From: Verrucomicrobiota bacterium
Lineage (GTDB): Bacteria > Verrucomicrobiota > Verrucomicrobiia > Limisphaerales > JADJPG01
Length of the DNA stretch: 64,000 bases
NCBI GenBank assembly: GCA_041166945.1
Contig: JBEEGQ010000183.1
Span: forward strand, 742-64,741
Direction: 5' to 3'
Shown here one piece after another: positions 5,863 to 32,774 of the stretch (position 1 is its first letter; each line of letters begins with the position of its first letter). A program made the position numbers and the translations under genes. Under the pieces are notes generated by a model. That model was given only the letters and a program-made list of their open reading frames with translations, ran no database searches and was not told the DNA's origin.

Positions 5863-6122
5863 ATCCCCCGCACACTCCCCGTTCGGTGTCCACCCTTTAG
5901 GGTGTCCTCCTCCACAGACCACAAGGGCCCGACACCCTAAAGGGTGGACACCGAGCGCTCCATTCTTGCGCGCAGGAGATGTCGCAGTCCACCCCGATGC
6001 AGTTCCGGCGCTGAATTCCCCGGCACGCCCCCGCTGTGTTCCCCGTTCGGTGTCCACCCGTTAGGGTGTCTTCCTCTTCAGACCACAGGGGCCCGACACC
6101 CTAAAGGGTGGACACCGAGCGC
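5816..6122. repeat. Tandem duplication (units 5816-5958 and 5968-6122), each holding a REPIN-like inverted repeat
   Basis: Both units start GCGCGCA(C/G)GAGATG(C/T)CGCAGTCCACCCC(C/G)ATGCAGTTCCGGCGCTGAAT. Unit 1 has a perfect 23-bp stem, CGGTGTCCACCCTTTAGGGTGTC (5884-5906) pairing with GACACCCTAAAGGGTGGACACCG (5931-5953), with a 24-nt loop. Unit 2 has arms 6048-6070 and 6095-6117 with one mismatch. Each arm also contains its own small hairpin (CACCC-TTTA-GGGTG). Confidence 0.9.
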
Positions 6123-6182
6123 CCCAACCGCACCCTGACAATTGCATTGCCATCGGCCCCGGGCGTTGGACAACTTCCCGGA

Positions 6183-12170: not shown

Positions 12171-14564
12171 TTACCGTGAGAATCCCTCCCGTTTGTAGAT
12201 GTTCTCCTTTTTCAGCATCCGCTTGTCGGTCTCCTCGAGGAGCTTCCGCTCGGACTCGTTGAAATCCTGCTCGGCTTCCTTCGTCGCTGGCATTTTGGCG
12301 CGCTCCTGCTTTGCGAAAGTCGCCGCCACATCCGGTGTGGGAAGAACCGTCGGACGAATGAGAACGATCAGTTCCCGCCGATCCTCGGTTTCCTTCGTGC
12401 TACTGAAGAGCCGGCCCAGGATGGGTATGTCCTTCAAGATCGGCACGCCGCCATGCGACTTGTTCTTCTGGTTGGAAATGAAACCGCCCAGCATCACCGT
12501 CTCGCGATCGCGGACGGACACTTTCGCATTGGCCTCCTTTTGGCTCGTGATCGGCACCGCTCCCACGCTTTGGATGATGACATCGCCATCATAGCTCTCG
12601 ACCTTCTGGCGGATATCCATCACGACGAGGCCATCGTGGTTGATCAGCGGCAGCACCGAGAGAGTGACACCGATTTGGAGCTGCTGAATTTGGTTGTAAC
12701 CGCCGTAGATGCCGCCTGAACTCGAGCTCGACGGGTAGGGACGCGATTGGCCGACGAACAGGTTGGCTTCGACAGCGTGCGAGGTCTGGATGCGCGGACG
12801 TTGAAGAATTTTTCCGCGTCCATCGCCGGCGAGCGCCGTGATGGCGGCGTCGAAATTCATGAAACTCGCGACATAGGTGAACCCATCGCCGATGGAGTTC
12901 GACCCCGTGCCGCCGCCGCCCACCACGTTGTTCAGGCCCAGGAAGGGAATGGTCTTGATGGCGCCGGCGCCGGTGAAGACGTCGCCGACGGTGGTCGGCT
13001 TGGTCTGCACGTAGTTCATTCCGTATTCGAGATTGTTGTTGAGGTTGACCTCCATGATCACGGCCTCGATCACGACCTGGGCGAGGACAACGTCGAGCTT
13101 GTCGATGATGTTCGATATCGTCTGCAAATCCTGGCGGCTGGCGAAGATCAGCAGCGAATTGGTCCGCTCGTCGGCAATGATCTTGGTCTGGCCCAGAACG
13201 AAAATGTCGCCGGTACCGGTCGCCGCGCGGTTGACGATCTGATTCAGCCGTTGCGCAAATGAACTGCGGCCGCCCGCGCCGGGGGCGCCCGCGCCGCCCA
13301 ATGCGCCTCCCTGCTGCTGCGCGCCGTAGGGATTGTTGGGATTGTAACCGGGCTGATTGAGGCCGGTGCCTCCAAAGCCGCCAACGCCCCCGCGGTTGCC
13401 GCCCAATCCGCCGCCGCCCGAACTCAGGCCGGTGTTGCTCTGCTGCCGGCCGACCGTCGTACCGCCGCCCCCGCCGCCCGCCGTCAGCGTGCTCAACACC
13501 TGTTGGATATCCGCCGCCAGCGCGTACTTAATCGGGATCACCACGTCGATGAAATCCTGCACCGGAACCACATCCACCTTCTCGATCAATTCCAGCATGC
13601 GCTTGGCGTTCTCCGCGTAATCGCGAATGATCAACATGCTCGTGCTCGGCACCGTCAGAATGCTCTGGGGCATCTTGGCAAACGGCTGGAGAATCTGGAT
13701 CAAATCGTTGGGCAACGCATTTTTCAACTGGACGACATGCGTCACCATCGTCGCCGATTCCGGGTAGAGCTGCCAATCAGAGTTGGTGCCCAGGTTGTCA
13801 AACTCCTTGCCTTCCGAAAATGCCTGGGCTTGCGGCACGGCTTTCACAAATTTGGTTCCCTGCGGCACCATCGTGATCGAGTTCATCGCCAGCACGGTTT
13901 CCAGCGCTCCTATCGCCTCGCTTCGAGTCAATGGCGTTTGCGTCTTGAACGTGATCTTCGCCGCGGGCAGCGACGGCGCCTTCAACACGGTCCGCCCGGT
14001 CAGCTCCTGGTAAATGTCCAGGATCGGATTGATGTCCGCGTCCGAAAACTTCAGCAGCCCCGGGGGAAAAACCTCCTCGGGCGCGCCGGCGGCATTGCCA
14101 GCGGCCAGATTCGTCTGGCCGGCGGCTGCCGCGCGGATGGCGGCGGCCGTGACATTTGTGGGACCGGCGGCAGCGGCTCCCACTCCCGGGATCGGCGCGA
14201 CCGGCGGGGCCAAGGTTCCGGCCGTGTTGGCCGGCGTAAATCGCATCCCGGGCCGATTGGTGTTCACTCCGCCCGCAGTCGGAAGCGGCGGCGTGGGCAG
14301 AACAGGAAATGCCGCGGGCGCCGGACGGGTGGCCGCCGACGGCAATGTGGTGCCAGGCGCCGGAGTCAGCACGGGCGTCGGCAGGGTTCGGGGATTATTG
14401 GTGGCGGCGGCCGCGGCGGCGGCGCGGGCCGCTGCAAACGCCGCCTTTTCGCGCGCAATCATCTCGGCATCGGGCGTCGGAGGCGGGGGCGTTGGGGCCT
14501 GGGCCCGCAGGTTTGGCCCGATGGCGCCGGCCACCAGGATCAGGATGAGATGGATGTTTTTCAC
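12171..14564 (-). CDS. Secretin (GspD/PilQ family)
   Basis: C-terminal secretin signature (...RETVMLGGFISNQKNKSHGGVPILKDIPILGRLFSS). N0/N1-like repeats are present. I prefer GTG at 14564 (VKNIHLILILVAGAIGPNLRAQA, a signal peptide). The ATG at 14639 would overlap the upstream gene by 71 nt. Confidence 0.88.
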   Translation of the reverse strand: MKNIHLILILVAGAIGPNLRAQAPTPPPPTPDAEMIAREKAAFAAARAAAAAAATNNPRTLPTPVLTPAPGTTLPSAATRPAPAAFPVLPTPPLPTAGGVNTNRPGMRFTPANTAGTLAPPVAPIPGVGAAAAGPTNVTAAAIRAAAAGQTNLAAGNAAGAPEEVFPPGLLKFSDADINPILDIYQELTGRTVLKAPSLPAAKITFKTQTPLTRSEAIGALETVLAMNSITMVPQGTKFVKAVPQAQAFSEGKEFDNLGTNSDWQLYPESATMVTHVVQLKNALPNDLIQILQPFAKMPQSILTVPSTSMLIIRDYAENAKRMLELIEKVDVVPVQDFIDVVIPIKYALAADIQQVLSTLTAGGGGGGTTVGRQQSNTGLSSGGGGLGGNRGGVGGFGGTGLNQPGYNPNNPYGAQQQGGALGGAGAPGAGGRSSFAQRLNQIVNRAATGTGDIFVLGQTKIIADERTNSLLIFASRQDLQTISNIIDKLDVVLAQVVIEAVIMEVNLNNNLEYGMNYVQTKPTTVGDVFTGAGAIKTIPFLGLNNVVGGGGTGSNSIGDGFTYVASFMNFDAAITALAGDGRGKILQRPRIQTSHAVEANLFVGQSRPYPSSSSSGGIYGGYNQIQQLQIGVTLSVLPLINHDGLVVMDIRQKVESYDGDVIIQSVGAVPITSQKEANAKVSVRDRETVMLGGFISNQKNKSHGGVPILKDIPILGRLFSSTKETEDRRELIVLIRPTVLPTPDVAATFAKQERAKMPATKEAEQDFNESERKLLEETDKRMLKKENIYKREGFSR

Positions 14565-14568
14565 GGGA

Positions 14569-15225
14569 TCACTTCTTTTTATTCGTCGTGGTGTTCGACG
14601 GGGTGCCAGTTGTCTTGGGAGGAGTTTTGGCAGGGGCATTCGTGGACTTCGCGGGCGCCGCCGGCGCGGCCTTCGGCGGACTTTTGCGCTGGTAACTTTT
14701 CACCAGTGTGATGTTCCCCTGGAGGCGCATGCGGGTTTGATCGGGCTGCAACAACATGCTCTTGGCGCGAATCAAAAGATCCTTGTCGGCGAGCCGGTAC
14801 AGAAAATCGAGCAATTCCTTTTCGCCAGTCGTGAAAGTGACGCCGACAGAGGCCTCCTCGAAGAAGGCATTTGTTTTCCCGCCCGAACTCCGGCTGACCG
14901 GCGAGATCGAAGGGAGCGTGACGCCGCTGAGAGCGGCCTGGGAGCTCACCTCCTGCGAGAGCCGCAGCGCGGCCTCCTCGGTCGCCACTTCCGTGCCCTG
15001 TTTCGAGAGCTCGCGAATCCGGCCTTCGTAGAGCGGCTTTCTCTTTATTTCAGCCTGAAAATCACTCACCTGCTTCAGCGCCTTTTTGCGTTTGTCCTCC
15101 GTCACACCGTATTCACCAAACCTCGGGATGATGAACCAGATGTTGATCACGATAAACACGCCGATGCCGACGAGGACCACCAGGCGCCGCTCGGCGGGAG
15201 TCAGCTTGTTGAAGAAATCTTTCAT
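14569..15225 (-). CDS. PilO/GspM-like bitopic pilus or secretion assembly protein (hypothetical)
   Basis: MKDFFNKLTPAERRLVVLVGIGVFIVINIWFIIPRF is an N-terminal TM segment. A coiled-coil and an alpha/beta domain follow, then a Lys/Pro/Thr-rich tail. The ATG overlaps the stop of the upstream gene (ATGA at 15222-15225). Confidence 0.5.
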   Translation of the reverse strand: MKDFFNKLTPAERRLVVLVGIGVFIVINIWFIIPRFGEYGVTEDKRKKALKQVSDFQAEIKRKPLYEGRIRELSKQGTEVATEEAALRLSQEVSSQAALSGVTLPSISPVSRSSGGKTNAFFEEASVGVTFTTGEKELLDFLYRLADKDLLIRAKSMLLQPDQTRMRLQGNITLVKSYQRKSPPKAAPAAPAKSTNAPAKTPPKTTGTPSNTTTNKKK

Positions 15226-16628
15226 TCGGTATCCGTGCGCCGCAGATCGCAATTCAGACTCCATGTTAACAACGGAGTTCCCGCTTTGTTGTCCACCCGG
15301 CCGATATTTACCTTGCTGAAAAGTGGCTGCCCATTGACCGCCGCCTTGAGAAGCGCCTCGTTGAATTCAAAAACCATGCTGCGATCCTCGATCCCCGCCG
15401 ATCCGAAAAAGGTGACCTTGTGGCCGCGGTCGAAATTCATCGAATCCAGAATCAGCTCGGTCGGCATCGTTTCCGCCACGGCTTTGTAAGTCTCCAAGGC
15501 GGCATACTGCAACTCCAGCGTCTCCTGCAACACGCGCAGCTTTTCCCGGAGCTGGATCGTATTCGTGTAGGTCACGCCGAGGCTCGAGGCCTCGGTCTGC
15601 ACACTGTCATAGCGCCACGACGCCACCTGCAAAAAACCGAGGTAGACCACCACGCCAAAGACATAAAGCAGCAGCACCGCACCGAGGGATCGCATCCAGA
15701 GGCGGTCCACGAAAAGCTGCCGGTAACGCTTCGAGTATTCCGGCGGCAGCAGGTTCGTGGTGCCGGTGGCGGCGGTCACGCGCCGCGCGGTCAGCGCGGC
15801 CAGCGCCTCCGGAGCCGGCGGCGGAATGACTTCGACCGTGGTATTCGGATCAAACAACGGGACCCACGCCGCAGCCGTCGCTTCGTCAGCCACCAGGTGA
15901 TACCGCGCTTCCGAGGTAAGCCATCCTTCCATCTCGCCCGCCCAGGCCGTTTGCGAAATCTGCTCGCGCAACGCGGGAGCGCGGGTCTCCCCGGGCGGAA
16001 GATTCAGCAGGGTGAGACTTTGGAGCACGCCGTCGAACCACCAGGCGACCATGCAGGTGCTGGCAGTGCCGCCGATCCCCGGAAAAATCCAGGCCCCATT
16101 GGCGCTGACCTTCGTCGAGCGCAGCTCGTCAAGCAGGGGTAGTTCGAGGCGATCCGCCACATAACCCTGGCTTTCCAACTGGCCCAGGAACTCCTCCACG
16201 TGACTGCGCGCCACCATGATGACCACCACCGTCTGCTGTTCGCCGCTGGAATGCGGATTCAGATGATCGCTGGCTCCACCCTGGGCGATGTAGGGAAAAA
16301 CTTCGTAGCTCCAGACAATTTGCGCCACGGGCAGCGGCGAGATCTTCTCGAGCTGCAAATCAATCATCGACTGCGTCTCGGCGGCATCCGTCTTCGGAAG
16401 CTGCAGCACGCGCAGAAAAACTTTCTCCGCCGAGAGCCACGCCACATTGAGACGAGGCTGGAACAGCGAATGCCAGTCCTTCGCCACGAGCTTCTCGGCG
16501 AGGGGTTCGCTGGGAAGTTTCGATTCGGATTTGAGAAGGTTAAACTTGTTGTTGGCGGCGCTGAATTGCCACAGATGCCGGATCTGGGAACCGGACAGGA
16601 GTACATTGCAGGAATGCCAGCGGGCCAT
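15222..16628 (-). CDS. PilM/PilN-like (GspL-like) fused assembly protein (hypothetical)
   Basis: 468 aa. A cytoplasmic ~310-aa domain, then a TM helix (LWMRSLGAVLLLYVFGVVVYLGFL), then a ~130-aa periplasmic PilN-like domain. The call rests on this topology and on its position between the ATPase and the PilO-like gene. No sharp motif was seen. Confidence 0.5.
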   Translation of the reverse strand: MARWHSCNVLLSGSQIRHLWQFSAANNKFNLLKSESKLPSEPLAEKLVAKDWHSLFQPRLNVAWLSAEKVFLRVLQLPKTDAAETQSMIDLQLEKISPLPVAQIVWSYEVFPYIAQGGASDHLNPHSSGEQQTVVVIMVARSHVEEFLGQLESQGYVADRLELPLLDELRSTKVSANGAWIFPGIGGTASTCMVAWWFDGVLQSLTLLNLPPGETRAPALREQISQTAWAGEMEGWLTSEARYHLVADEATAAAWVPLFDPNTTVEVIPPPAPEALAALTARRVTAATGTTNLLPPEYSKRYRQLFVDRLWMRSLGAVLLLYVFGVVVYLGFLQVASWRYDSVQTEASSLGVTYTNTIQLREKLRVLQETLELQYAALETYKAVAETMPTELILDSMNFDRGHKVTFFGSAGIEDRSMVFEFNEALLKAAVNGQPLFSKVNIGRVDNKAGTPLLTWSLNCDLRRTDTE

Positions 16629-16723
16629 GGGTCAGGAGAGATGAAGATTGAACGGCAGTGGGGCAGTTGTCGCGGCCTGTCCCGGGCCCGTGGCTTCGGG
16701 CATCATCGTTAGCCAGCTCGAGT

Positions 16724-18475
16724 TCATGTCTTGGTGACGAATTCAGTCCGCGAGTCGCCCATCAATCCGAAGTGTTCCTCGGTCTGGGTGACGCGAAGGA
16801 CCTCCTCGACGGTGGTTCGTTTGGCCTTCACCTTTTTCCAGCCGTCGGTGCGCAGCGTTCGCATGCCGCCTTCCATCGCTTTTTGCGCGAGTGTGTTCGC
16901 GGGCGCGCGATTCATGATGAGCGGCCGCAACGCCTCGGTCACGACGAGCAATTCGTAGATTCCCTGCCGGCCCTGGTAGCCCAATGAGCGGCAGGCCTCG
17001 CACCCCGCGCCGCGATAGAATTTCGCCGTCCCAATCTCGTGCTCCGGGAACTGCACCTTGCGCAGGAACTCGGCATCGAAATGCTGTTCGACCATGCACG
17101 ATGTGCAAATGGTCCGGACAAGCCGCTGGGCCAGGACAGCCTCGACGGATGAGGCGACCAAAAACGGCTCGATGCCCATGTCGATAAGCCGCGTGAACGC
17201 GCTCGGGGCGTCGTTCGTGTGCAGCGTGCTGAAGACCAGATGCCCGGTCAGCGCCGCGCGGATCGCGATCTCAGCCGTCTCCAGATCGCGAACCTCCCCC
17301 ACCATGATGACGTTTGGATCCTGCCGCAGGATATGGCGCAGGCCCATCGCGAAGGTCAGCCCGATGTCCGAACGAACAGAGATCTGGTTGATCCCCTTCA
17401 ATTCATACTCGACCGGTTCCTCGATGGTGATGATCCGCTTGCTGACGGAGTTGATCGAACTGAGGAAGGCGTAAAGCGACGTCGATTTCCCCGCGCCGGT
17501 CGGCCCCGTGACGAGCATGATGCCGTGAGGCTTGAGCACGATGTCGCGGATCGCCGTCTCTTCCATGTGATCGAAACCCAGCTTGTCGAGCGTCAGAAAA
17601 ATCTTGCCGCGCGTCAGTAACCGCAGCGACACGCTTTCGCCATATACGGTCGGGACCGTCGAAACGCGGATGTCGATCTCCTCGCCCTTGATGCGGACAT
17701 TGATGCGGCCGTCCTGCGGCAGGCGTTTCTCGGAGATGTTCATCCCGGACATCACCTTGATGCGCGAGATGATCGCCGCCTGGAAACGTTTCAACTGCGG
17801 CGGCATCGGGGTCTGGTGCAGGATGCCATCGATGCGATAGCGGATGCGCAATTCATCCTCGGCCGGTTCGAAATGGATGTCCGTCGCGCGATCCTTGAAA
17901 GCCTCCCAGATGATCTGGTTGACGAATTTGATGACCGACGCCTCCTGATCGCCCTCGGTGATCTCCTTGTCCCCGGCCAGATCGAGGTCGAGGGTGTCAT
18001 CCTCCTTCGACATTTCATCCAGGGTCTCGGCGCCGACGCCGTAGTATTTCTTGAGCGCCTTGTCGATTTCGATCTTCGGCGCCAGCGCGAATTGCACCGG
18101 GGATCGGGCGTCGAACTGCACCGCGCTCAGCATCCCGGCGTCGAACGGGTTGCTCACCACAACCTGCAGGGTGCCATTCTGGTAATCGGTCGGGATGGCG
18201 AAATATTGAAAGGCGACCTTCGTCGATATCTTGTTGCGCGCCTCGGTGGGCACCGTGAGTTTTCGGAGGTCGACAAAGGGCCAGTTGAGAACGCCGGCCA
18301 GTTGTTGGAGGAAGAGTTCCTCGGTCGTTCCTGCCTCGCGACATATAAACTCCAGCAAGCCATCCTGCGAGCCGTCGGCTGTCGCCAGGCGCCATTTCTT
18401 CTGCCAATCATCCACCTGCCCCGGCGAAGTGTTCGCAGCGCGAGCGACGATGTTTTTGAGTGAGACGTGAGCCAT
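16724..18475 (-). CDS. Type II secretion / type IV pilus assembly ATPase (GspE/PilB family), full length
   Basis: 583 aa. Has an N-terminal T2SSE_N-like region, Walker A GPTGAGKST, Asp box IEEPVEYE, Walker B VIMVGEVRD, His box GHLVFSTLHTND, and CTSC...CEAC tetracysteine. Confidence 0.92.
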   Translation of the reverse strand: MAHVSLKNIVARAANTSPGQVDDWQKKWRLATADGSQDGLLEFICREAGTTEELFLQQLAGVLNWPFVDLRKLTVPTEARNKISTKVAFQYFAIPTDYQNGTLQVVVSNPFDAGMLSAVQFDARSPVQFALAPKIEIDKALKKYYGVGAETLDEMSKEDDTLDLDLAGDKEITEGDQEASVIKFVNQIIWEAFKDRATDIHFEPAEDELRIRYRIDGILHQTPMPPQLKRFQAAIISRIKVMSGMNISEKRLPQDGRINVRIKGEEIDIRVSTVPTVYGESVSLRLLTRGKIFLTLDKLGFDHMEETAIRDIVLKPHGIMLVTGPTGAGKSTSLYAFLSSINSVSKRIITIEEPVEYELKGINQISVRSDIGLTFAMGLRHILRQDPNVIMVGEVRDLETAEIAIRAALTGHLVFSTLHTNDAPSAFTRLIDMGIEPFLVASSVEAVLAQRLVRTICTSCMVEQHFDAEFLRKVQFPEHEIGTAKFYRGAGCEACRSLGYQGRQGIYELLVVTEALRPLIMNRAPANTLAQKAMEGGMRTLRTDGWKKVKAKRTTVEEVLRVTQTEEHFGLMGDSRTEFVTKT

Positions 18476-18576
18476 GAAATCTGCTTAACCCGTTGCGTAA
18501 CTTAAACAACCGAACCTAGGGAAAGTTTCGGAAAGGGTCAAAGTATTTAACCGGTCCAGCATCCAACCAGATGCAT

Positions 18577-18785
18577 CCCGAAGTTGTTGGTGAACGTCCG
18601 AGCCGGGATTGATTCGCCCCTGTAGCGCAGACTTCCAGTCTGCTGTATCGCGGGTTTCCAATCCGCACGCGTTGGGAGTTGCCTTTTGCGCCAGGATTGT
18701 CAACCGCCTGCCGACTGGAAGTCGGCGATACAGCAGACTGGAAGTCTGCGCTACGTGCGGAATGGCTCCAACCAACAACTTCGGG
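18577..18785. repeat. Nested inverted-repeat element (REP/REPIN-like)
   Basis: Outer perfect 15-bp IR: CCCGAAGTTGTTGGT (18577-18591) with ACCAACAACTTCGGG (18771-18785). Inner perfect 30-bp IR: GTAGCGCAGACTTCCAGTCTGCTGTATCGC (18622-18651) with its reverse complement at 18725-18754. Each inner arm is itself a hairpin (GCAGACT-TCC-AGTCTGC). A third related hairpin, GCCGACTGGAAGTCGGC, lies at ~18710-18726. The inner arms end in GTAG...CTAC. Confidence 0.85.
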
Positions 18786-18873
18786 ACACACGGCATCCAA
18801 GCAGGTCGGCAGAAGCCGACTGCACTTGAGGATTCAATTGCAGGGAACAGAAACCGAATCCAGATCCAGCCGC

Positions 18874-19926
18874 TCAGCCCAGGTCGTGCCATCCATGCTG
18901 CTCTCGGACATCGATCATCGCCCGCAAAATGTTGTTCCAGGTCTCCTGCTTCCGCATCACATCGTTCGGAAACATGCAGCCATCCCAGCAGACGTGCATC
19001 ACCGCTTTCGTCAGCTTTTTCTTCTCGTCCCGCAGCCAGAAGCCCGCGTGATGGGCGATGTTCAATTTGCCGTTCGGGTCGTTCACGACACAATGGCGGC
19101 CGGTCTTATCATGCCCGCCTGACCCCTTCACCGTGGCGTCGTTCTGGGCGACATGGAAATCGATCGTCCACGGGCGGAGCGCAGCCGTCAGCTTGACGAG
19201 CGCCTTGTCCAGGGTGGATTTGTCCTTCCAATTGTAGCCGGCCGGCAGGATCGCGTCTTTTTCGGCGTTGTAACCCAGCGTGTAAAGAAGCGTGTGCGCC
19301 ATGTCCGCTTGGAAACCCACGGTCTGCGGACGGTCCGTCGCCTCGAGCAGATTCACCATGTTGCGCCATGAATGCATGCCGCCCCAGCAAATCTCCCCTT
19401 CCGCAGCCAGCCGTTCACCATGCTCCTCGGCAATTACCGCCCCTTCGCGAAAGGTTTGGGCGATGCGCTTCGTGTTGCCCTTGGGATCCTTGTCCCAATC
19501 CGCGACGCCCGCCGCGGAATCGATCCGCACGATCCCATAGGGACGCACGCCGATCTGCCGAAGCGTCCGCCCGATGCGACAGGCTTTGCGAACCGCCGTG
19601 AGCCAGTTGGCCCGCTGGGTGTCGTCGCCCATCGCCGAGGCATCGAACCAGACCGGCGCCACCACCGACCCCACCACGAATCCCCTCCCCGCGATCTTTT
19701 CAGCAAGCGCCTTAATCCCGTCGTCACCGATGTCGATCGACACGTGCGGATCATAAAGAAACAGATCGACGCCATCGAAGCGCGTCCCATTGACCTCCGC
19801 TTTGGCCGTCAAATCGAGCATGGTATCCAGGTCGATGGAGGGTTCCGCCCCGGGCCCGCCCTTGCCCACGAGGCCGGGCCACATGGCATTATGAAGTTTG
19901 GGAAAGAGATTCTTCTGTTTGCTCAT
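18874..19926 (-). CDS. Sugar phosphate isomerase/epimerase (xylose isomerase-like TIM barrel)
   Basis: 350 aa. [23 protein letters not shown]...DGVDLFL... resembles the PVC-typical TIM-barrel family that is usually paired with Gfo/Idh/MocA oxidoreductases. Confidence 0.75.
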
Positions 19927-20014
19927 GCCGATGCCTTTGATGTTTAAGATGCGCCCGAGCTGATGTGGGGACTTCTCTGCCGAAAACGCGTGCCGAGGGC
20001 AAGCCTGATCTGGC

Positions 20015-21175
20015 TTATCGCGTGAAGGATTTTGTAAAATCCTCAGACGACACTTCGATTACTTTTTTTCGCAACTTCGAACCCGCGATAAGTTCGGCAA
20101 GTTTATTTTCATACGCCGCGGCATCCAGCGGGAGTTCGATGGTCTGGCCGATAAGCGACGAATACAGCATCGCGTTGGCGAGTTCGACGGAATAAATCCC
20201 TTCCTGGCCGGGCACGAGCAACGGCGCGCCGTCGAGGATCGCATCGACAAAATTCTGCATCAACGTGGCGTGTTGCGAAGGCGCATTGTCGAAGGGAATG
20301 TCGCATTGCCAGACCTCAGGCCGCGCAAAACCGGTGCGCACCGCCCGGCTGAATTCGAGCATGTCGGCTTCGTTGCGCGTAAAGCTCAGCTTGTTGTTCT
20401 CGAGCACGAGGCGTCCCCGCGTCCCCGCCAGCTCGAACCGGTTCGTGCCGGGTGCTTCCCCTGTGCTGGAAATAAAAACGCCGGTCGCGCCGCTGCCCCA
20501 CTCGAGATGCACAGTCACGTTGTCCTCGACTTCAATGTCGTGAAAGCGGCCGAGCTGGCAAAAGCCGCGGACCCGCGCCGGCATTCCAACGAGCCACTGA
20601 AGCGTGTCGAGCTGGTGAAGACATTGGTTCAGCAACACCCCGCCGCCCTCCCCTTTCCACGTCGCGCGCCAGCCGCCACTCGAGTAATAAGCCTCGGTGC
20701 GAAACCAATCGGTGATGATCCAATTGACGCGCACGATGCTCCCTAAATCGCCCTCCTGGATGAGCCTTCGGATTCGGGTGTAACGCGGCTCGGTCCGGAG
20801 CTGGAACATCGCCCCAAAAATCTGCTTCGGCCGTTCCGCCGCCACGGCAATAAGACGTTCCGCATCGGCTTTGTGTGACGCGATGGGTTTCTCGACCATC
20901 ACGTGCAATCCGGCTTCCAGCGCTGCGATCCCCTGGGCGGGATGCTGGGGATGCGGCGTTGCGATCAGGACGGCATCCACCGCGCCGGATCCGATTAATT
21001 TCGAAGCATCATCGAAAACAGCGACGCCCCTGTTCCTGAAAGCGTCGAGCTTTTGAGGGGAGGTCGAACAAACGGCCGCCAGTTCGCATCGGGCGACCTT
21101 CTCCGCCAGCAGATAGTCGGCGTGAAACTTCCCGATGTTTCCCATGCCGATAAGGCCCAGACGGACTTTGTTCAT
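20015..21175 (-). CDS. Gfo/Idh/MocA family oxidoreductase
   Basis: [22 protein letters not shown] is a Rossmann GxGxxG motif, followed by ...HVMVEKPIA. 386 aa. Confidence 0.85.
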
Positions 21176-21249
21176 GCGAAGGCCAATAGTAACGGCAGCC
21201 GCTGAATATTGTCGAGAATCCTCGAAAAGCCCAGGTGCGCATCATCAAT

Positions 21250-21981
21250 TTAAGGTGATTCCCACTGGCCCTCCTTGACCAGGGCTTTCCAGAGCCGGCG
21301 CATTTTTTCCCGCGCCCGGAACGCCCTCACTTTCACGAGCGAAATGGACCATCCAGTCATCCGGCTGATTTCGTCCACACTGCGTTCCTCCAGGTGGAGC
21401 AGGTTGATGATCATCCGGTCTTCGGGCCATAACGGCGCCATGAGACGTTCCAGTAATTCGCGCGCCGCCCGAAGTTGCCCGGCCGGCACGTCCTCATCCG
21501 TGCAGGCGAGATGCTCGACCACCGCCTCCTGCTCCTGGCTCAAATCGCTCATCCGCAACTCGGGCCGCCCCGATTCGTGCTTGAGCTGATTGATGCACGT
21601 GTTGATGGCGATGCGGGACACCCAATGTTCCAATGGCACCCGGCCGGAGAACTGATGAAGGGATTTGAAAATTTTTGCGAAAATGGCCTGCGTCAAATCC
21701 TCCTCGAGGGTTCGCGGCGAAAGACGCCCGCGCACGATTTTCAGGACGAGTGGATAAAGCCTTTGGACCAGGGCGCGCGCAGCGGTTTCATCGCCCTGGC
21801 GCGCCTGTTCGATCCTCGATGAGTCCGCTGAATCGGGATTGCTTCCGGCCGCGCCGGATCGCTCCGCCAAGCGCGAGGCCCTCTCCCGCGCCATCCATCG
21901 AAGTGGCCAGTCTTGCAGTGCGGCAGGTTCCGGGGCGCAGTCCTCCGCGGGAGCCAGCGTTGCCATGGTGAGTGTTGCCAT
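21250..21981 (-). CDS. ECF-type RNA polymerase sigma-70 family factor with N-terminal extension
   Basis: Region 2: LEEDLTQAIFAKIFKSLHQFSGRVPLEHWVSRIAINTCINQLK. Region 4: SVDEISRMTGWSISLVKVRAFRAREKMRRL. There are ~55 extra N-terminal residues, so the start is uncertain. Confidence 0.8.
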   Translation of the reverse strand: MATLTMATLAPAEDCAPEPAALQDWPLRWMARERASRLAERSGAAGSNPDSADSSRIEQARQGDETAARALVQRLYPLVLKIVRGRLSPRTLEEDLTQAIFAKIFKSLHQFSGRVPLEHWVSRIAINTCINQLKHESGRPELRMSDLSQEQEAVVEHLACTDEDVPAGQLRAARELLERLMAPLWPEDRMIINLLHLEERSVDEISRMTGWSISLVKVRAFRAREKMRRLWKALVKEGQWESP

Positions 21982-22069
21982 TTCGGATCGTGATTTACAA
22001 AGACATGCGCAAACGCCGGGCGAAGTCCGCAGGAAATTTTTAGCGACGCCTTCTCAACCGACGATTTGT

Positions 22070-22636
22070 TCAATCGTTTGTGGCCGCCGTGCCTTTGATG
22101 CTGCCGACGTGGAAGTCCGCGTAGAGAACATTTTTGCCCGTTCCACCGCTGTGGAAGCTCTCGTAGTCATACATGAGAAAGGCTTCGCTGATCGGATTCT
22201 GGCTGTGACGCGGGCTGTCCACCGGCCGGCCGCCATACCAGTTGTTCCATTCGTAACTCGAGCCGTTCTGCTCAAAACGCAGCGCATTGTCGTCGGGGCA
22301 TCGAAAAACGGTGTTGTGTTGCGGCAACGCATTGGTGTTGTAGCTCAGCTCCGGGCCGAGAAGATCGCAGATCCGGGGCAGCGGCGGGTTCGTCGAGGGC
22401 AATGTCGGCAACTGTTCCGCCAGCGGCAACTTGCCTTCGTTCTCGTCGGCAAACATCCGGACGGCCACTCCGAGTTGTTTCAAATTGTTGACGCACGTGA
22501 TGTCGCGGGCCTTCTCCTTCGCCCGACCCAGGACGGGCAATAACAAGCCTGCCAGGATGGCGATGATCGCGATCACCACGAGCAGTTCAACCAGGGTGAA
22601 AGCCGCGCGACGCTCGAGTGCAGATGCTTTTTTCAT
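22070..22636 (-). CDS. Prepilin-type N-terminal cleavage/methylation domain protein (DUF1559 / 'H-X9-DG'-like pseudopilin)
   Basis: From ATG at 22636: [56 protein letters not shown]... The C-terminus is [14 protein letters not shown]. An alternative GTG at 22675 overlaps the upstream stop. Confidence 0.8.
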
Positions 22637-22671
22637 TCTGTCTAAAATTAATTTGAGTTGTGAATGTTCCG

Positions 22672-23865
22672 TCACCGCGGAGGGCCGCCCGGTCCGCCGG
22701 GACCACCGGGACCACCGCGGCCGGGGCCTCCGGGTCCGCCGCCGCCGGGCGGTCGCATCCGCGCACGCTGTTCCGGCGTTGTGTTCATGATGCGATCGCG
22801 GTTCATCTTTGCCATTTCCGGCCCGCTCCTCTGGCTAAAGCGCTGCGCGCGCTCCTCGGGAGTCATATTTTGCATCTCCTGCATCTCCTTCTCCCGCTCT
22901 GCCTGCGCCTGTTCGAGTTTCGCGCGCTCGTCCGCCGGCAACGCCTGGCGAAGCTCGGCTTCCAACGCCTCCCGCTGCTGGCGCAGCTCATCGTTTTGCG
23001 CATCACCCATTCGCGGTCCTCGAGGGCCCATCTGGCCGGAATCATTCGTCCCGTCGCGCGGCCGAGGCGGGCCGCCACCCCGTTCGCCGAGGCCACTTTG
23101 GTCATCGTTCATCGGCCCGCGCGACGCAAACTCGGGAGGCCCGCCGCGTCCTCGAGGCCCTCCCCCCGGACCGCCGGGTCCAAATTCCATCCGCAGCGTA
23201 TAAAGCCGTTTCCAACTGAGATGCGCCCTTTTCGCCAATTGCGCCACGGCGTCCTTCACGGTCGCCTTGTTCAGGGTAAACGTCACCGACGCGCTGGCGC
23301 CATCCTCGGGGACAACGCGAGTCTGCGCGAATCGGCCGAAAGCGAGCGTGGCGAACGACACATCCTTGTCCTGAATCTGCAACGACACCCGCTGCGGCGC
23401 GATCGAAAGCGGCCCGCCGAAAGGGCCTCCGCCGAATGGTCCGCCGCCACCGAACATCGGGCCCCCTCGAAAAGCGCCACGCACGTTCAAATTGGTCCAT
23501 CCGTTTTGAGCCGGATCCAACTCGCCGCGCAATGATTGCTTCAGGGCGCCCAAGGATTTGCCGGTCGAATAGAGCGGATAAATCACGCTGGATCGGCACG
23601 AGGTCTGATCGGCAACGAGGCGCAAAACGTTTTCGAGCGGCATTTTGCGGACGTTTAAGGTGACCTTTCCCTGCACCTCCTTTTGCACGTAAATCGTCTC
23701 CCACGTCTGTCGCTCAATTTTCTTCACCACCTCGCGCACGTCCATGTCCCGGACATTAAGCGTCACCCGGTTTGAATGCGCCCGAACCCCCAGCCAGGCG
23801 GCATAAATGGCGACGCCGACCACCACGAGCCCGATAATAAACAGCCGCTTGCTTCGAGGTTTCAT
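22672..23865 (-). CDS. Membrane-anchored hypothetical protein with STN-like repeats and Gly/Pro-rich spacers
   Basis: 397 aa. N-terminal TM ([20 protein letters not shown]). Three 'VTLNV/VTFTL...' beta-alpha units. Low-complexity stretches [28 protein letters not shown] and a C-terminal [24 protein letters not shown] charged helical region has two TPE(E/Q)RA motifs. Confidence 0.6.
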
Positions 23866-26244: not shown

Positions 26245-26790
26245 ATGACAACGTTTGCGACCAGGGAGAATGGACGGTGCGAAGCGCGGTTGAGATTGCC
26301 CACAGGCTTTGGGTCCGCATTGGGCAACAAGGAACTTGCGGAAGTCGTTCTCGAGGCAGTCCGGATGCTGGACGACGGGGAGCTGAACCCGCCGTTGTCC
26401 CCAGCCACCGCGCCGGCTTTTCGCCCGCGGGTCATGCTGGCCATGTTGACTTATTGCTATGCCATCGGCGTTTACAGCTCGAAGGATGTTGAAGAAATGA
26501 TGTACGTCGACGCGCCGTTTCGCGCCCTGTGCGGGATGGAGTATCCCGACTGGAAACGGCTCAAACGGTTTCGTCGCGACAATCACCCCGCGCTGGAGCG
26601 GACACTCGAGGAAACCTTCAGCCGGATTTGGATTTTGCATGAGACGCCCAGCCAGACTCGCGCGGATGAACCCTCAAATGGTCATTCGAGCAATGGCCTC
26701 CGCGAGCCGGCGCGGCAGGGATGGTTCCTCATCGAGGCACAGTCGCGCATCGAACAGGCCATGTTCATTGACCACATGACCGACGTCTGA
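26245..26790 (+). CDS. Stand-alone transposase InsH N-terminal (DUF772)-like domain protein
   Basis: FRPRVMLAMLTYCYAIGVYSSKDVEEMMYVDAPFRALCGMEYPDWKRLKRFRRDN resembles the DUF772 consensus (...Y.PR.ML..LLYGY..G..SSR.LE......AFRWL.G...PDH.T..RFR). No DDE catalytic domain follows and no terminal inverted repeats were seen. Confidence 0.55.
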   Translation: MTTFATRENGRCEARLRLPTGFGSALGNKELAEVVLEAVRMLDDGELNPPLSPATAPAFRPRVMLAMLTYCYAIGVYSSKDVEEMMYVDAPFRALCGMEYPDWKRLKRFRRDNHPALERTLEETFSRIWILHETPSQTRADEPSNGHSSNGLREPARQGWFLIEAQSRIEQAMFIDHMTDV

Positions 26791-29975: not shown

Positions 29976-30494
29976 ATGATGTGCATCGTTCCAGCCACCG
30001 CCACTGACATCCCGGCGCTCCAACACCTCGCCCATCGCATCTGGCACGAATATTATCCCGGCATCATTAGTCGCGCTCAGATCGATTACATGCTGGCACG
30101 AATGTATGCCCCTGAAACCATCGCGCGGGAACTGTCGAATGGCGTCCGCTGGGAGATCGTGCGGTGGTCCGGAGAGTCGGTCGGCTTCCTCTCCTTCGAA
30201 TTCATCGACGCCCCGCCGCATTTGAAACTCCATAAACTTTATCTCCTGCCCGCGCTTCACGGCCAGGGCATCGGCCGCGACATGCTCGAACACGTCAAGA
30301 CCCAGTGCTCGAATAGGGGCGCATCCGAAATCTGGCTTCAAGTCAACCAGCACAACACCCGCGCCCTCCGCGCCTATCAACGCGCCGGATTCCAAATCCG
30401 AAATCAAGTGGTCACCGACATCGGCCACGGCTTCGTCATGGACGACTTCATCATGACCCTGGGCGTCCCCAAGGGGTCAGTCCCTACTATTTGA
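29976..30494 (+). CDS. GNAT family N-acetyltransferase
   Basis: From ATG at 29976: MMCIVPATATDIPALQHLA... The acetyl-CoA motif is LYLLPALHGQGIGRDMLEHV, followed by ...NTRALRAYQRAGF. The last 10 codons and the stop (GVPKGSVPTI*) are encoded by the left arm of palindrome copy 1. Confidence 0.8.
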   Translation: MMCIVPATATDIPALQHLAHRIWHEYYPGIISRAQIDYMLARMYAPETIARELSNGVRWEIVRWSGESVGFLSFEFIDAPPHLKLHKLYLLPALHGQGIGRDMLEHVKTQCSNRGASEIWLQVNQHNTRALRAYQRAGFQIRNQVVTDIGHGFVMDDFIMTLGVPKGSVPTI

Positions 30495-30539
30495 ACTTTT
30501 TCATCATTGAGTTCAAATAGTAGGGACTGACCCCTTGGA
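30461..30539. repeat. 79-bp palindromic element, copy 1
   Basis: Perfect 29-bp stem: CCAAGGGGTCAGTCCCTACTATTTGAACT (30469-30497) with AGTTCAAATAGTAGGGACTGACCCCTTGG (30510-30538). The 12-nt loop is TTTTCATCATTG. No T-run follows on either strand. Confidence 0.95.
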
Positions 30540-30594
30540 GTTCGGGCTCGCTAGTTGTCACGGCAGAGAAGCAGAATTTCACCGCATCCGCGCC

Positions 30595-31815
30595 ATGCAT
30601 CACACCACGCAATACCTCCAGTCGGATTACACTGCGGAAAAGGGAATCGAGATTGGGGTGCTGGTTCATCACATTCTCACAGACGCCATCCAGGCTGGCG
30701 CGAGCGACGTTCATATCGAACCGTGGGAAAACACCATCGTGGTCCGGTTGCGCTTGAGCGGTGTTCTGACTGAACTCGTGCATCTGCCTCTGGACCTGAT
30801 GGAAAAGATCTCGGGCAGGTTCAAGGTGATGGCCAACCTGATCAGTTACCAGACGGGCTTGCCCCAGGAGGGACATGCTTCGGGAGGACCGGAATTGGGC
30901 GGCGTGGAACTGCGCATCTCGGTTTTTCCCACTACGCGCGGGGAGAAAATTGTCGTGCGCCTGTTCGATCCCCGCAATCGCAGCTTCAACCTGTCCACAC
31001 TGGGCTTCGATGAATCTGTCGAGCGCCAGTGGCTCAAGCTGCTCGCGCGTCCGAGCGGGTTGTTGTTGCTGACCGGCCCAACGGGCTCGGGCAAGACGAC
31101 GGCGATCTATTCGTCCCTCCACCAAATCGTCCAGCGAACTGGGCCCGCCGTGAGCATCAGCACAGTCGAGGATCCGGTGGAATTTAATCTCCCGATGATC
31201 AGCCAGGCTCAAATCAATCCTGTGCAGGATTTCACCTATCCGAAGGCGCTGCGTTCGCTGATGCGTCAGGATCCACAAGTAATCATGATTGGCGAAATCC
31301 GCGACCCGGAAACGGCGAACATCGCGGTCCAGGCCGGGCTGACCGGACATCTGGTCATCAGCACCATCCACAGCGGCATTGCCGCGGGAGTTTTCGCGCG
31401 CTTGATCAACATGGAGATCGAGCCATTCCTCCTGGCCTCCAGCATCATCGGCATCCTCAGCCTCCGGCTCGTTCGCAAGAATTGTCCGGATTGCCTGCAA
31501 CCGTATTCCCCGGAAGAAGGCGTGTTGAAAATGATGCCCGGAGACGAGATCGAACACGCGCGCTTCCTGAAGGGCGCCGGCTGCGCGCGCTGTTCGGATA
31601 CCGGCTTTCAGGGGCGAACCGCATTGACGGAATTGCTGGTTCCCGATGAAGTTTTCCGGGACGCTGCGCTGCAGAGGTTGCCGACGCGCGCCCTTCAGGA
31701 CATTGCGATCCAGCAAGGGATGCAAACGATGTGGATGGACGGGATCCACCGCGTGGTCCGCGGCGAGACGACTTTGGAGGAAATCGTCCGCGTCGTCGCC
31801 GCCGACCAAATCTGA
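30595..31815 (+). CDS. Orphan GspE/PilB-family secretion ATPase lacking the N-terminal T2SSE_N region
   Basis: 407 aa from ATG at 30595. SDVHIEPWENTIVVRLRLSGVL, Walker A GPTGSGKTT, VEDPVEF, Walker B VIMIGEIRD, His box GHLVISTIHSG, and CPDC...CARC. The 467-aa antisense ORF 30487-31890 is a shadow. Confidence 0.88.
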   Translation: MHHTTQYLQSDYTAEKGIEIGVLVHHILTDAIQAGASDVHIEPWENTIVVRLRLSGVLTELVHLPLDLMEKISGRFKVMANLISYQTGLPQEGHASGGPELGGVELRISVFPTTRGEKIVVRLFDPRNRSFNLSTLGFDESVERQWLKLLARPSGLLLLTGPTGSGKTTAIYSSLHQIVQRTGPAVSISTVEDPVEFNLPMISQAQINPVQDFTYPKALRSLMRQDPQVIMIGEIRDPETANIAVQAGLTGHLVISTIHSGIAAGVFARLINMEIEPFLLASSIIGILSLRLVRKNCPDCLQPYSPEEGVLKMMPGDEIEHARFLKGAGCARCSDTGFQGRTALTELLVPDEVFRDAALQRLPTRALQDIAIQQGMQTMWMDGIHRVVRGETTLEEIVRVVAADQI

Positions 31816-31852
31816 GCCGTAATCGATTTGCCTTACAACCCGTTCACAAAGA

Positions 31853-31960
31853 CTGCTAGCTGTGAAACAGGAAAAAGCCGCCGACCACAACGACGAGGCC
31901 GGCCAGTTTTAAAAACACCGGACGGCGGGCGGCATGCCAGTGGGTGCGGCAAAACATCAT
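31853..31960. repeat. 108-bp direct repeat: extra copy of the 3' end of gene 32046-32774 (partner at 32043-32150)
   Basis: 106/108 identical to 32043-32150; both differences are A/G. On the minus strand it encodes MMFCRTHWHAARRPVFLKLAGLVVVVGGFFLFHS*, identical to the C-terminus of the intact gene. Confidence 0.95.
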
Positions 31961-32039
31961 GGGCGTCCCCAAGGGGTCAGTCCCTACTATTTGAACTTTT
32001 TTATCATGGAGTTCAAATAGTAGGGACTGACCCCTTGGA
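31961..32039. repeat. 79-bp palindromic element, copy 2
   Basis: Identical to copy 1 except at two loop positions (TTTTTATCATGG). The stems are 31969-31997 and 32010-32038. The offset from copy 1 is exactly 1500 bp. Confidence 0.95.
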
Positions 32040-32045
32040 AGGCTG

Positions 32046-32774
32046 CTAGCTGTGGAACAGGAAAAAGCCGCCGACCACAACGACGAGGCCGGCCAGTTTT
32101 AAAAACACCGGGCGGCGGGCGGCATGCCAGTGGGTGCGGCAAAACATCATTGTGATGATGCCCGCCACGAATGTGCCGATCAGCACGGCGATTCCCCAAC
32201 CGGGGCTCGTTCGGAAAGCGGCGCCCACCAGCCAGACGTGTCCCGCGGCGATGGTGAGAAAGCCCAATCCCAGGAGCCCCGTCCCGGCGATGTTTCGAAT
32301 GGTCCAATGAAACGGCTCATCATGGGTGGATTCGCACTGGGCTTTGTCATCCGGTCCGCCCTCCGCTTCCGCGGTCGCGGTTTCACGTGCCTTGATGGGT
32401 GTCGCCCCGCTGCTGCGCGGTGAGGAGCTGGCATTTCCGGCGCGTTCGCTGACGCCGAGGTTCAGAGCCCCCCGGCCCAGCTGGCTGAGCGCATCGGGCT
32501 CCAGATCTTCCAACAGAACGGTCGCGAATCCCTGCGCGGACCGGAATGAAACGTGCCGTTTGGAAATGTCGACGATGGTCACCTTTGTGTAGGCGGTGCC
32601 CCGCACGGTCAGCGTATCAAAGGCGCGCCCCGAAGGTGGCGGGTCCACCGCACGCGTCGACGGAACGAAAAAAAGCGTGAGCGCGATCACAACGCCCGCG
32701 AAGAGCCACGATGGAAATCCCGCATCAACGCGGGCTTGGATTTGTTCGCCGGGCACAACAATGGAGGCTTTCAT
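32046..32774 (-). CDS. Hypothetical membrane protein
   Basis: 242 aa. N-terminal TM (WLFAGVVIALTLFFV), a small beta-rich domain, a Ser/Ala-rich linker, and three C-terminal TM helices. No recognisable motif. Confidence 0.6.
   Translation of the reverse strand: MKASIVVPGEQIQARVDAGFPSWLFAGVVIALTLFFVPSTRAVDPPPSGRAFDTLTVRGTAYTKVTIVDISKRHVSFRSAQGFATVLLEDLEPDALSQLGRGALNLGVSERAGNASSSPRSSGATPIKARETATAEAEGGPDDKAQCESTHDEPFHWTIRNIAGTGLLGLGFLTIAAGHVWLVGAAFRTSPGWGIAVLIGTFVAGIITMMFCRTHWHAARRPVFLKLAGLVVVVGGFFLFHS

Follow-up and report, generated by a model that had tools for sequence, protein, structure and literature searches.

Near-identical palindromes on both sides of a verrucomicrobial GspE/PilB-type ATPase gene: probable REP-like repeats around a resident gene

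Two near-identical palindromes, which lie 1500 bp apart in a contig of a Verrucomicrobiota bacterium and bracket the gene of a GspE/PilB-type ATPase, are probably ordinary small non-coding repeats of the REP/REPIN kind. They would belong to the class with GGGGWSAS-type arms (GGGGTCAGTCCC), and the ATPase between them is in all probability a conserved native resident of its locus, not a mobile cassette. The window, i.e., the whole stretch of DNA that was analysed, comprises 64,000 nucleotides. Its cassette-like layout is thus best read as a resident gene that has acquired REP-like hairpins on both sides, and the value of this reading is mostly that of a correction. With the ATPase being resident and the hairpins acquired, there is no new mobile ATPase module to infer. 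A long duplication of the flank of one palindrome is a modest mechanistic curiosity and is discussed below.

The architecture of the palindromes is simple. Repeat detection yielded a direct repeat of 80 nt with 98% identity at positions 30460-30539 (P1) and 31960-32039 (P2), the spacing being exactly 1500; no strand is assigned to either copy. The repeat units are asymmetric. In each of them, 9 unpaired bases, TGGGCGTCC, precede a stem of two 29-nt arms (30469-30497 and 30510-30538 in P1) that are 100% complementary and enclose a loop of 12 nt; one base trails behind. P1 and P2 differ in 2 of the 80 positions, and both mismatches are confined to the loop (TTTTCATCATTG versus TTTTTATCATGG). A previous interpretation, made from the letters alone and here called the sequence-only reading, had already described the pair with its spacing, stem, loop and two loop differences, and this description proved to be correct with a repeat unit of 80 nt. 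Each arm contains GGGGTCAG, a motif of the GGGGWSAS type (at 30473 and 31973), with the complement CTGACCCC at 30527 and 32027. Folded as RNA, the hairpins reach -58 to -66 kcal/mol with a z of about -11. The stem sequence has no third occurrence within the 64 kb with up to 3 mismatches allowed (chance expectation 0.00), and the two copies visible in the window represent a single locus. Downstream, the stem is followed by AGTTC or AAGGC; GTAG is absent from the flanks. An Rfam search with P gave no match at gathering thresholds, and below them it gave only models of miRNA precursors, matched through generic hairpin features.

The ATPase gene (30595-31815, plus strand) starts with an ATG at 30595, outside the repeat element, and encodes 406 amino acids; from this ATG onwards the sequence is identical to P0001. 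The protein consists of an N2 domain and a C-terminal ATPase domain, while the N1 and MshEN domains are absent. It had been considered as a truncated protein of 407 residues. This view has to be revised. The Pfam T2SSE match extends over model positions 9-370 of 370 (E 8.5e-101), the protein aligns over its entire length with the structures of EpsE, PilB and PilF, and the T2SSE core is complete, comprising Walker A and B, the Asp and His boxes and the tetracysteine motif. A 583-aa paralogue, which has an additional MshEN domain, is 38% identical. In Verrucomicrobiota the family comprises more than 120 matches with 76-86% identity and 403-456 residues, and since nearly all of them measure 404-406 residues, the protein is a conserved short form and not a truncation. 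The GC content does not shift across the 1500-bp unit.

Upstream of the ATPase lies the gene of a GNAT acetyltransferase (29976-30494, plus strand), which reads its non-conserved C-terminal tail and its stop from the left arm of P1. This overlap is limited to the last 10 codons, GVPKGSVPTI, plus the stop, exactly as the sequence-only reading had it. Homology to other GNAT proteins stops at ...FVMDDFIMTL, and the tails of the homologues are variable, having 3-20 residues. When the homologues were compared for a native origin of the 9-nt lead TGGGCGTCC, which would have revealed in which direction P was copied, the C-terminal tails turned out not to be conserved and gave no information on this point. 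On the other side, the gene of a 242-aa membrane protein (32046-32774, minus strand) converges with the ATPase gene; P2 is intergenic and begins after the stop codons of both genes, 7 nt from that of the membrane gene and 144 nt from that of the ATPase. The pairing of these two genes is ancestral. In one relative (L017) an epimerase, GCV_T, the membrane gene and the ATPase are found together, and the convergent stops are 7 nt apart; another one (L014) has the same membrane gene/ATPase pair with a gap of 9 nt; in L004-L006, L022 and L025 GCV_T comes directly after the ATPase. In 11 relatives that are more distant, the ATPase has as its immediate upstream neighbour a divergent, weakly similar (27-32%) gene of a GFO-type oxidoreductase. 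The order of ATPase, membrane gene, GCV_T and epimerase is common to relatives that are free of the palindrome, which implies that the palindromes came to a locus where the gene was already resident. The P palindrome was not found on both sides of the ATPase in the relatives, the P motif occurred in none of them, and related verrucomicrobial loci, 747 kb in total, contained practically no 10-mer core of P. Several relatives have unrelated long hairpins upstream or downstream of the ATPase.

Relatives of the palindrome are widespread in metagenomes. Metagenome contigs were searched with the gapped pattern GGGGTCAGTCCC N{25,55} GGGACTGACCCC, i.e., for the inverted pair of the outer stem. It was detected in at least 120 contigs with a GC content of 0.32-0.74, the number expected by chance being estimated at well below 1. 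The members are palindromes of 49-79 nt with subfamily-specific inner stems and variable loops, and a crude ORF analysis places them at a median distance of 10 nt from a stop codon. One subfamily from one freshwater population has at least 12 distinct flanks and is therefore dispersed. Judged by its sequence, P is a member of this family: positions that were not imposed by the search, (A/G)CTATT and AATAGT, are common to P and one subfamily (L147, L103, L124, L204, L218). AT-rich members contain a self-folding GGGG/CCCC mini-hairpin, which is missing in the arms of P. A 20-mer across outer and inner stem (GTCAGTCCCTACTATTTGAA) had no exact match in GTDB representatives or JGI contigs, neither of which contains the source genome. 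The six-frame peptides of P, compared with proteins at E <= 10, revealed no read-through of another copy, which is a weak negative, and 10- to 13-mers of P retrieved nothing but unrelated primers from the full-text literature. The sequence-only reading had itself named what would make P an ordinary element, namely palindromes at the 3' ends of unrelated genes and an ATPase that stays in the same place in relatives. This is what the family search and the synteny comparison found.

The accepted view of GGGGWSAS-class elements is that a Y1 transposase, encoded elsewhere in the genome, mobilises them in trans in the form of single-stranded hairpin DNA. Such Y1_Tnp genes are present on three contigs of the family, L208, L141 and L123. 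Pfam recognises the first two (E 4e-14 and 6e-16, respectively), the third was seen by tblastn only, and the L208 protein scores above the NCBIfam cut-off for a "REP-associated tyrosine transposase" (85.6 versus 80 bits). Each of these genes has, at a distance of about 40-60 nt on its flanks, sequences related to the palindromes that are dispersed on the same contig. The number of Y1 genes shows no clear enrichment, since the palindrome loci have 3 in 624 kb and the control loci 2 in 747 kb, and the link therefore rests on the relatedness of the flanking sequences. In the 64-kb window tblastn detected no Y1 transposase. The sequence-only reading, which had seen neither recombinase nor transposase there, is inaccurate in detail, as the ORF at 26245-26790 has a DUF772 transposase domain. 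The GGGGWSAS repeat class, previously described from a few cultured genomes, proves to be widespread in metagenomes over a very wide GC range, to have a conserved core of 12 nt and to reach Verrucomicrobiota.

The flanking repeats of TIRYTs share the consensus GGGGWSAS, i.e., GGGG[AT][CG]A[CG]; the repeat families are moderately abundant, dispersed and often dimeric, and those published for TIRYTs and for TnpA_REP subclass 2.1 are mostly from Proteobacteria and Acidobacteria (PMC3733652, PMC6006769). The GGGGTCAG of the P arms fits this consensus of the TIRYT or "TIRtron" (Di Nocera et al. 2013) and of TnpA_REP subclass 2.1 (Quentin et al. 2018). Like these, the P class forms hairpins from head-to-head dimers, is dispersed in subfamilies other than that of P, is found downstream of genes and has relatives that flank Y1 transposase genes, albeit in other genomes. 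It differs in that the host of P is a verrucomicrobial MAG and that the conserved core extends to 12 nt. P also resembles the REPIN/RAYT system (Bertels & Rainey 2011, PMC3116915) in form: it is one long, non-coding and extragenic hairpin made of two inverted short repeats, in the size range of about 70-110 nt, and in both cases the flank is sometimes duplicated along with the element. However, P lacks the GTAG (or CTAC) tag at the ends of the classical REP/REPIN, its arms are not hairpins themselves, and its duplicated flank is found on both sides of a single element and not in a unit-by-unit tandem array. Such tags are present in another palindrome of the window (18622-18754), which has GTAG at its beginning and CTAC at its end.

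The duplicated flank had escaped the sequence-only reading. It is a direct repeat of 112 nt with 97% identity, immediately on either side of P2: X1 at 31849-31960 and X2 at 32039-32150, both read on the minus strand. The membrane gene has its functional 3' end in X2, and the C-terminus encoded there aligns end to end with the homologues. X1 is a displaced copy of this end that takes in the stop and 7 nt besides the last 34 codons; it is detached from the membrane gene, and the gene caller predicted a 34-aa ORF there. Because the last 34 codons are duplicated, the membrane gene is still intact. Of the 3 mismatches between X1 and X2, one is situated after the stop and two are synonymous, and with 3 in 112 the X pair is as divergent as the P pair with 2 in 80. 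P1 has no flanking duplication, the longest shared run being 8 nt. The arrangement of flank, palindrome and flank recurs with a flank of at least 304 nt (99%) in L199 and of 25 nt in L206, and these three independent cases of an element between long direct duplications hint at insertions or rearrangements at the 3' ends of genes that spare the gene. A MITE of a DDE transposon was also considered and discarded: the length of the duplication is not fixed, there being none at P1, 112 nt at P2, and 0, 25 or at least 304 nt at further members of the family.

We infer mobilisation in the source genome and an order of events that may have been as follows. ATPase, membrane gene and GCV_T are residents in their ancestral order, and the palindromes would have arrived later. 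A copy of the element would have been placed just past the stop codon of the membrane gene, whereafter DNA synthesis would have restarted 112 nt upstream on the original template. Such a replication-coupled insertion or template switch, with an overlap of only 1 nt per junction, would have duplicated the 3' end of the gene and left the membrane gene intact. Whether a single event produced both the P and the X duplication appears to us about evenly balanced; the equal divergence of the two pairs and the layout in L199 and L206 support it. Canonical IS200/IS605-type transposition does not duplicate its target, and the 112-nt duplication therefore needs an extra, hypothetical step. To our knowledge, target duplication has not been described as an insertion signature of Y1/HUH-mobilised elements, which are held to make none. 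That insertion of GGGGTCAGTCCC-class elements is coupled to replication and able to duplicate tens to hundreds of target bases (25, 112 and at least 304 nt) is quite unlikely. If it were true, a gene whose 3' end is hit by an element would have this end restored, and a pseudo-3'-end would stay behind in a displaced position, which would explain how very tight convergent gene junctions in compact genomes are colonised.

The same arrangement could have arisen in two steps, which we consider somewhat unlikely. P would first have been located between ATPase and membrane gene. P plus X would then have been duplicated in tandem (190 bp), and the proximal copy would have been precisely excised and, by peel-and-paste, re-inserted at the GNAT 3' end at a distance of 1.4 kb. 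There are precedents: in P. fluorescens SBW25 no higher-order arrangement is more common than tandem repeats of REPINs plus flank, and excision of REPINs has been observed (PMC3116915). The window itself harbours such a cluster of a different palindrome (5808-6126, gene 3' end plus hairpin, twice), and the equal divergence of P and X is compatible with this sequence of events, too. It requires two events, however, duplication and element must share their left end, and among 114 family elements tested the intermediate, flank-P-flank-P, was never seen, versus 2 cases of flank-P-flank. Very improbable is an artefact of metagenome assembly, by which a repeat or hairpin would have generated X1-P2-X2 or the second palindrome. 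The source contig was indeed assembled from a metagenome, and breaks or branches at such elements occur in some related contigs: L206 and L212 agree in the left flank and the element but differ on the right side, and the contig of L007, which was checked for repeat-caused breaks beside the ATPase, starts with Illumina adapter sequence. Yet a JGI contig with a record of its own and a different length (35 kb versus about 64.8 kb) matches over 13.2 kb with 100% identity, all repeats included, there are 2 and 3 substitutions between the copies with a longest exact shared run of only 56 nt, and a hairpin fold-back would yield inverted, not direct flanks.

It is very improbable, too, that P evolved locally as a terminator-like hairpin, that one local rearrangement then produced the second copy, and that the 12-mer is shared by convergence. 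Only two copies are seen, both local, an exact 20-mer match elsewhere is missing and the window has no Y1 gene, all of which would fit; but the inverted 12-mer pair and the extra inner positions are shared with a defined subfamily far beyond chance, and the motif fits a published transposase-associated consensus. The least credible proposal, and in our view an extremely improbable one, is that of the sequence-only reading, according to which palindrome plus ATPase form a mobile or excisable 1500-bp cassette, or the ATPase was inserted between pre-existing repeats. One intact gene is bracketed by two 80-nt direct repeats, and the upstream neighbours of the ATPase do vary among its relatives. 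The gene order shared with palindrome-free relatives nevertheless contradicts the proposal, conservation of the family at about 406 residues is expected under vertical inheritance, the GC content is even, and the unit carries X1, a fragment of the neighbouring gene, unlike a cassette. What survives of it is the REP-type nature of the palindromes; the landing of the ATPase between them does not. A single ORF between similar, more or less perfectly palindromic sites of 60-140 nt is also reminiscent of integron attC cassettes, but the stem of P is perfect and free of extrahelical bases, RYYYAAC/GTTRRRY core sites are missing and the ORF is a syntenic resident gene. GTTRRRY is found at neither right end (GTTCGGG after P1 has a C where R is required), and no integrase was detected among the ORFs scanned with Pfam. 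Recombination between the 80-nt copies could delete or invert the ATPase, the latter because each P copy doubles as its own inverted repeat. This potential is common to any such pair of repeats and does not make the ATPase a mobile unit.

The only role of the P hairpins today is most likely that of very stable stem-loops at the 3' ends of the transcripts of the GNAT, ATPase and membrane genes, and at the RNA level they may affect termination or mRNA stability. They share with Rho-independent terminators the very stable stem-loop directly after the stops of convergent and tandem genes, but the stem is far longer than canonical and a U-tract is lacking. Intrinsic terminators were accordingly dismissed: as the sequence-only reading had stated, no T-run follows P1 or P2 on either strand, and the terminator scan made no call at either copy. 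In giving codons to a protein, the GNAT tail, P1 resembles the Rickettsia palindromic elements (RPE) and intragenic REPs, and the unpaired lead TGGGCGTCC contains a CGTC tetranucleotide. The difference is that P1 supplies the last 10, non-conserved codons only and that CGTC is 1 nt off the stem.

The two palindromes that enclose the ATPase gene, P1 (30460-30539) and P2 (31960-32039), are 98% identical and offset by exactly 1500 nt. In both, arms of 29 nt, 100% complementary, enclose a loop of 12 nt, and the 2 differences between the copies lie within this loop. In these respects the sequence-only reading was right. It had described a perfect palindrome of 79 bp; the palindromic stem stands, but the unit comprises 80 nt and is asymmetric, with 9 unpaired bases (TGGGCGTCC) to the left of the stem in both copies. 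No further stem match with up to 3 mismatches was found within the 64 kb (chance expectation 0.00). As RNA, the hairpins have folding energies of -58 to -66 kcal/mol (z ~ -11). The upstream acetyltransferase (GNAT) gene indeed takes its ten C-terminal residues (GVPKGSVPTI) and its stop from the left arm of P1, and the claim that neither palindrome is followed by a T-run was borne out by inspection of both copies and by a terminator check.

What had been overlooked is that P2 is itself enclosed by direct repeats of 112 nt with 97% identity, X1 (31849-31960) and X2 (32039-32150). X comprises the final 34 codons of a membrane gene on the minus strand (32046-32774), its stop and 7 further nt. X2 is the working 3' end of this gene, and the protein ending in it aligns with its homologues from end to end; X1 is a displaced copy, annotated by the gene caller as a 34-aa ORF. 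The plus-strand order is GNAT, P1, ATPase, X1, P2 and X2 with the membrane gene. The new junctions around P2 have one ambiguous base each, T at 31960 and A at 32039. With 2 differences in 80 and 3 in 112 positions, the P pair and the X pair have diverged to the same degree, suggesting that both duplications have a single origin. The three X differences (31852, 31866 and ~31926), one after the stop, two synonymous and none non-synonymous, are too few to be interpreted, yet they are not the commonest outcome of neutral decay of X1 alone.

Could these repeats be an assembly artefact, e.g., a hairpin fold-back? Such a fold-back would yield inverted flanks, whereas the flanks observed are direct. 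Nor are the repeat copies identical; substitutions distinguish them. Further, the window is part of a ~64.8-kb NCBI MAG contig, and a separately recorded 35-kb JGI contig is 100% identical to it over 13.2 kb, all repeats included.

An exact 20-mer across the outer and inner stem had no match in GTDB genomes or JGI contigs, collections that do not comprise the source genome. A gapped outer-stem pattern, GGGGTCAGTCCC N{25,55} GGGACTGACCCC, however, matched on at least 120 metagenome contigs. The matches listed are palindromes of 49-79 nt that have the outer 12-mer in common; their inner stems are specific to the subfamily and their loops vary strongly. They lie on contigs with a host GC of 0.32-0.74. 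One freshwater subfamily occurs with at least 12 different flanks and is thus a dispersed repeat. The subfamily with which P aligns occurs in part on contigs bearing Planctomycetes/Verrucomicrobia-type genes, and P and this subfamily have positions in common outside the search pattern, (A/G)CTATT in one arm and AATAGT in the other. The closest member among the matches listed, L147, agrees with P in the first 19 nt of the arm. On L175, a contig of 1.66 kb, two copies of one subfamily (854-929 and 1492-1567, 91% identical, 638 nt apart) again bracket a short stretch.

Three of the palindrome contigs listed carry a Y1 transposase gene. The L208 protein matches Pfam Y1_Tnp at 4e-14 and reaches 85.6 bits with the NCBIfam model 'REP-associated tyrosine transposase', the cut-off of which is 80 bits; L141 matches Y1_Tnp at 6e-16, and the L123 gene is 48% identical to the L208 protein (tblastn). 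Within ~40-60 nt, these genes have flanks related to the dispersed palindrome of the same contig, e.g., AAATAAAGGGGTCAGACCCCTTTATTT in L141 and GGGGACAGTCCCCCGCCACAG in L208. RAYT-like 'TIRYT' genes flanked by inverted repeats with a common GGGGWSAS were described by Di Nocera et al. in 2013; the repeats form moderately abundant dispersed families, often as dimers (PMC3733652). Quentin et al. in 2018 placed these genes in TnpA_REP subclass 2.1, with the flanking consensus GGGG[AT][CG]A[CG] (PMC6006769). Since GGGGTCAG of P fits this consensus exactly, P is best filed, judging from its sequence, as a head-to-head dimer of the GGGGWSAS class with REPIN-like architecture. In contrast to classical GTAG REPs it lacks the GTAG tag and does not belong to them. 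The REP-type nature of the palindromes, previously offered as an alternative, is supported by this consensus fit and by the family in metagenomes. The class is already in the literature; P is a further member beside an ordinary resident gene.

The previously preferred idea, a cassette-like, excisable unit carrying a truncated ATPase, is not supported. The gene (30595-31815, plus strand) encodes 406 aa from the ATG at 30595, not 407, and is not truncated, because the Pfam T2SSE model is covered in full. It has more than 120 relatives in the databases at 76-86% identity, all with T2SSE as sole domain and nearly all of 404-406 aa; six longer calls have 412-456 aa. A GTDB scan yielded 554 loci encoding a relative, and the 80 kept were mostly Verrucomicrobiota MAGs labelled Limisphaerales or Pedosphaera. 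By alignment, the protein corresponds to the N2 and C-terminal domains of GspE/PilB. The 583-aa paralogue (16724-18475, minus strand), to which it is 38% identical, additionally has an MshEN domain and adjoins a secretin gene.

Nor did the ATPase land between the palindromes, as the gene order common to the window and its relatives reveals. The window has ATPase, membrane gene, GCV_T and GalE. The comparison locus L017 has an epimerase, GCV_T, the membrane gene (54% identical) and a convergent ATPase, with stops 7 nt apart; in L014 this convergent pair recurs, 9 nt apart, and in L004-L006, L022 and L025 GCV_T directly follows the ATPase. Eleven more distant loci have a GFO-type oxidoreductase of weak similarity (27-32%) in divergent orientation just upstream of the ATPase; the window also has one, but there the GNAT gene intervenes. 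The GC content shows no break across the 1500-bp unit. Judged by its neighbours, the ATPase is a resident gene, and the palindromes and the X duplication are lineage-specific additions. Of course, homologous recombination between P1 and P2 could delete or invert the ATPase, as with any 80-nt repeat pair. In the window and in loci L002-L098, from Limisphaerales/Pedosphaera-type MAGs, the ATPase is solitary and highly conserved, and its neighbours include no further secretion or pilus genes; downstream there is often GCV_T/YgfZ, and divergently upstream often the GFO-type oxidoreductase. L007 starts with Illumina adapter sequence (TGACTGGAGTTCAGACGTGTGCTCTTCCGATCT, 1-33), a contaminant in a public assembly.

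As the order ATPase-X-membrane gene is ancestral and P2 lies between the X copies, the event placed one element copy and duplicated 112 nt at the target. A simple tandem duplication predicts X-P-X-P or P-X-P-X, unlike the layout observed. Among the scenarios we favour a single replication-coupled event, to which we would give about an even chance. Synthesis would copy the element, with either P1 or an excised single-stranded intermediate as its source, and then pick up again further upstream on the original template; the resulting duplications could have any length and would show minimal homology at their junctions. The main alternative is a tandem duplication of element and flank, followed by precise excision and re-insertion at the GNAT 3' end. 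These are known processes; among the REPIN clusters of P. fluorescens SBW25, element-plus-flank duplications are the commonest type (PMC3116915), and the window itself contains a clear case with a different palindrome (5808-6126). We consider this route rather unlikely. A single assembly cannot prove either scenario.

The flank-element-flank layout recurs in two other family members. In L199 (1-731) direct repeats of at least 304 nt (99%) enclose the palindrome and a 42-nt extension, and the intact gene end appears to adjoin the element with the displaced copy beyond, as in the window; in L206 a 25-nt flank duplication surrounds the palindrome. This long and variable flank duplication, with three cases in the family, is the residual curiosity. 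L117 (6057-6235) has the same element and extension as L199 with a different left flank, and also partial tandem arm copies (AAGGCAAGGGGTCAGTCCCGCATAAGCAC twice). L206 (1-192) and L212 (1-168) have the left flank and palindrome copy in common (98% over 168 nt), whereas their right flanks differ and the 25-nt duplication is absent from L212; the element is either the site of a polymorphic rearrangement or a branch point of the assembly.

A crude ORF analysis places family members close to stop codons, at a median distance of 10 nt and often with overlap; the intergenic ones are found between convergent (21), tandem (32) or divergent (11) genes. Together with the general REP literature, the proximity to stop codons suggests that the hairpins may act at most as 3'-end stem-loops, in termination, mRNA stability or translation of the last codons.

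The claim that the window contains no transposase applies to Y1 enzymes, none of which is found anywhere in the 64 kb, but not to a DUF772 transposase-domain ORF (26245-26790, E 7e-10) ~4 kb upstream of the P1/ATPase locus, probably an IS5/IS1182-type fragment unrelated to Y1 enzymes. The array at 5808-6126 consists of Y1 (here a repeat, 5808-5870), Q1 (5876-5962), Y2 (5960-6022) and Q2 (6040-6126), with 90-93% identity between copies and most differences in the hairpin loop. Y is the 3' end of a 118-aa glutaredoxin-like gene (5506-5862), with its final 18 codons, its stop and ~7 nt more; Q is an 87-nt palindrome of another family than P. Y and Q are tandemly duplicated, matching the 'REPIN plus flank' cluster type of Pseudomonas. 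A third palindrome (18622-18754), located between an AP_endonuc_2 gene and the beginning of full-length GspE, has 50-nt arms (88% complementary), each with a mini-hairpin (GCAGACT-TCC-AGTCTGC); with GTAG at its start and CTAC at its end, it has the appearance of a REP dimer (REPIN) of the classical GTAG-tagged kind. Similar GTAG-type elements lie upstream of the ATPase in the relatives L035, L047 and L059. In the verrucomicrobial relative L078 (1500-2900) a Y1_Tnp-like gene (E 7e-5) lies within GTAG-tagged REP arrays (GTAGCGGCAGCCATCCTGGC...), so classical REP/RAYT systems also occur in the lineage. Finally, a secretion or pilus-related cluster extends on the minus strand from 12171 to 23865, with the secretin (12171-14639), a 468-aa ORF without Pfam hit (15222-16628), the full-length GspE with its MshEN domain (16724-18475), an ECF sigma factor (21250-21981) and a protein with STN and GspD-N0 domains (22672-23865).
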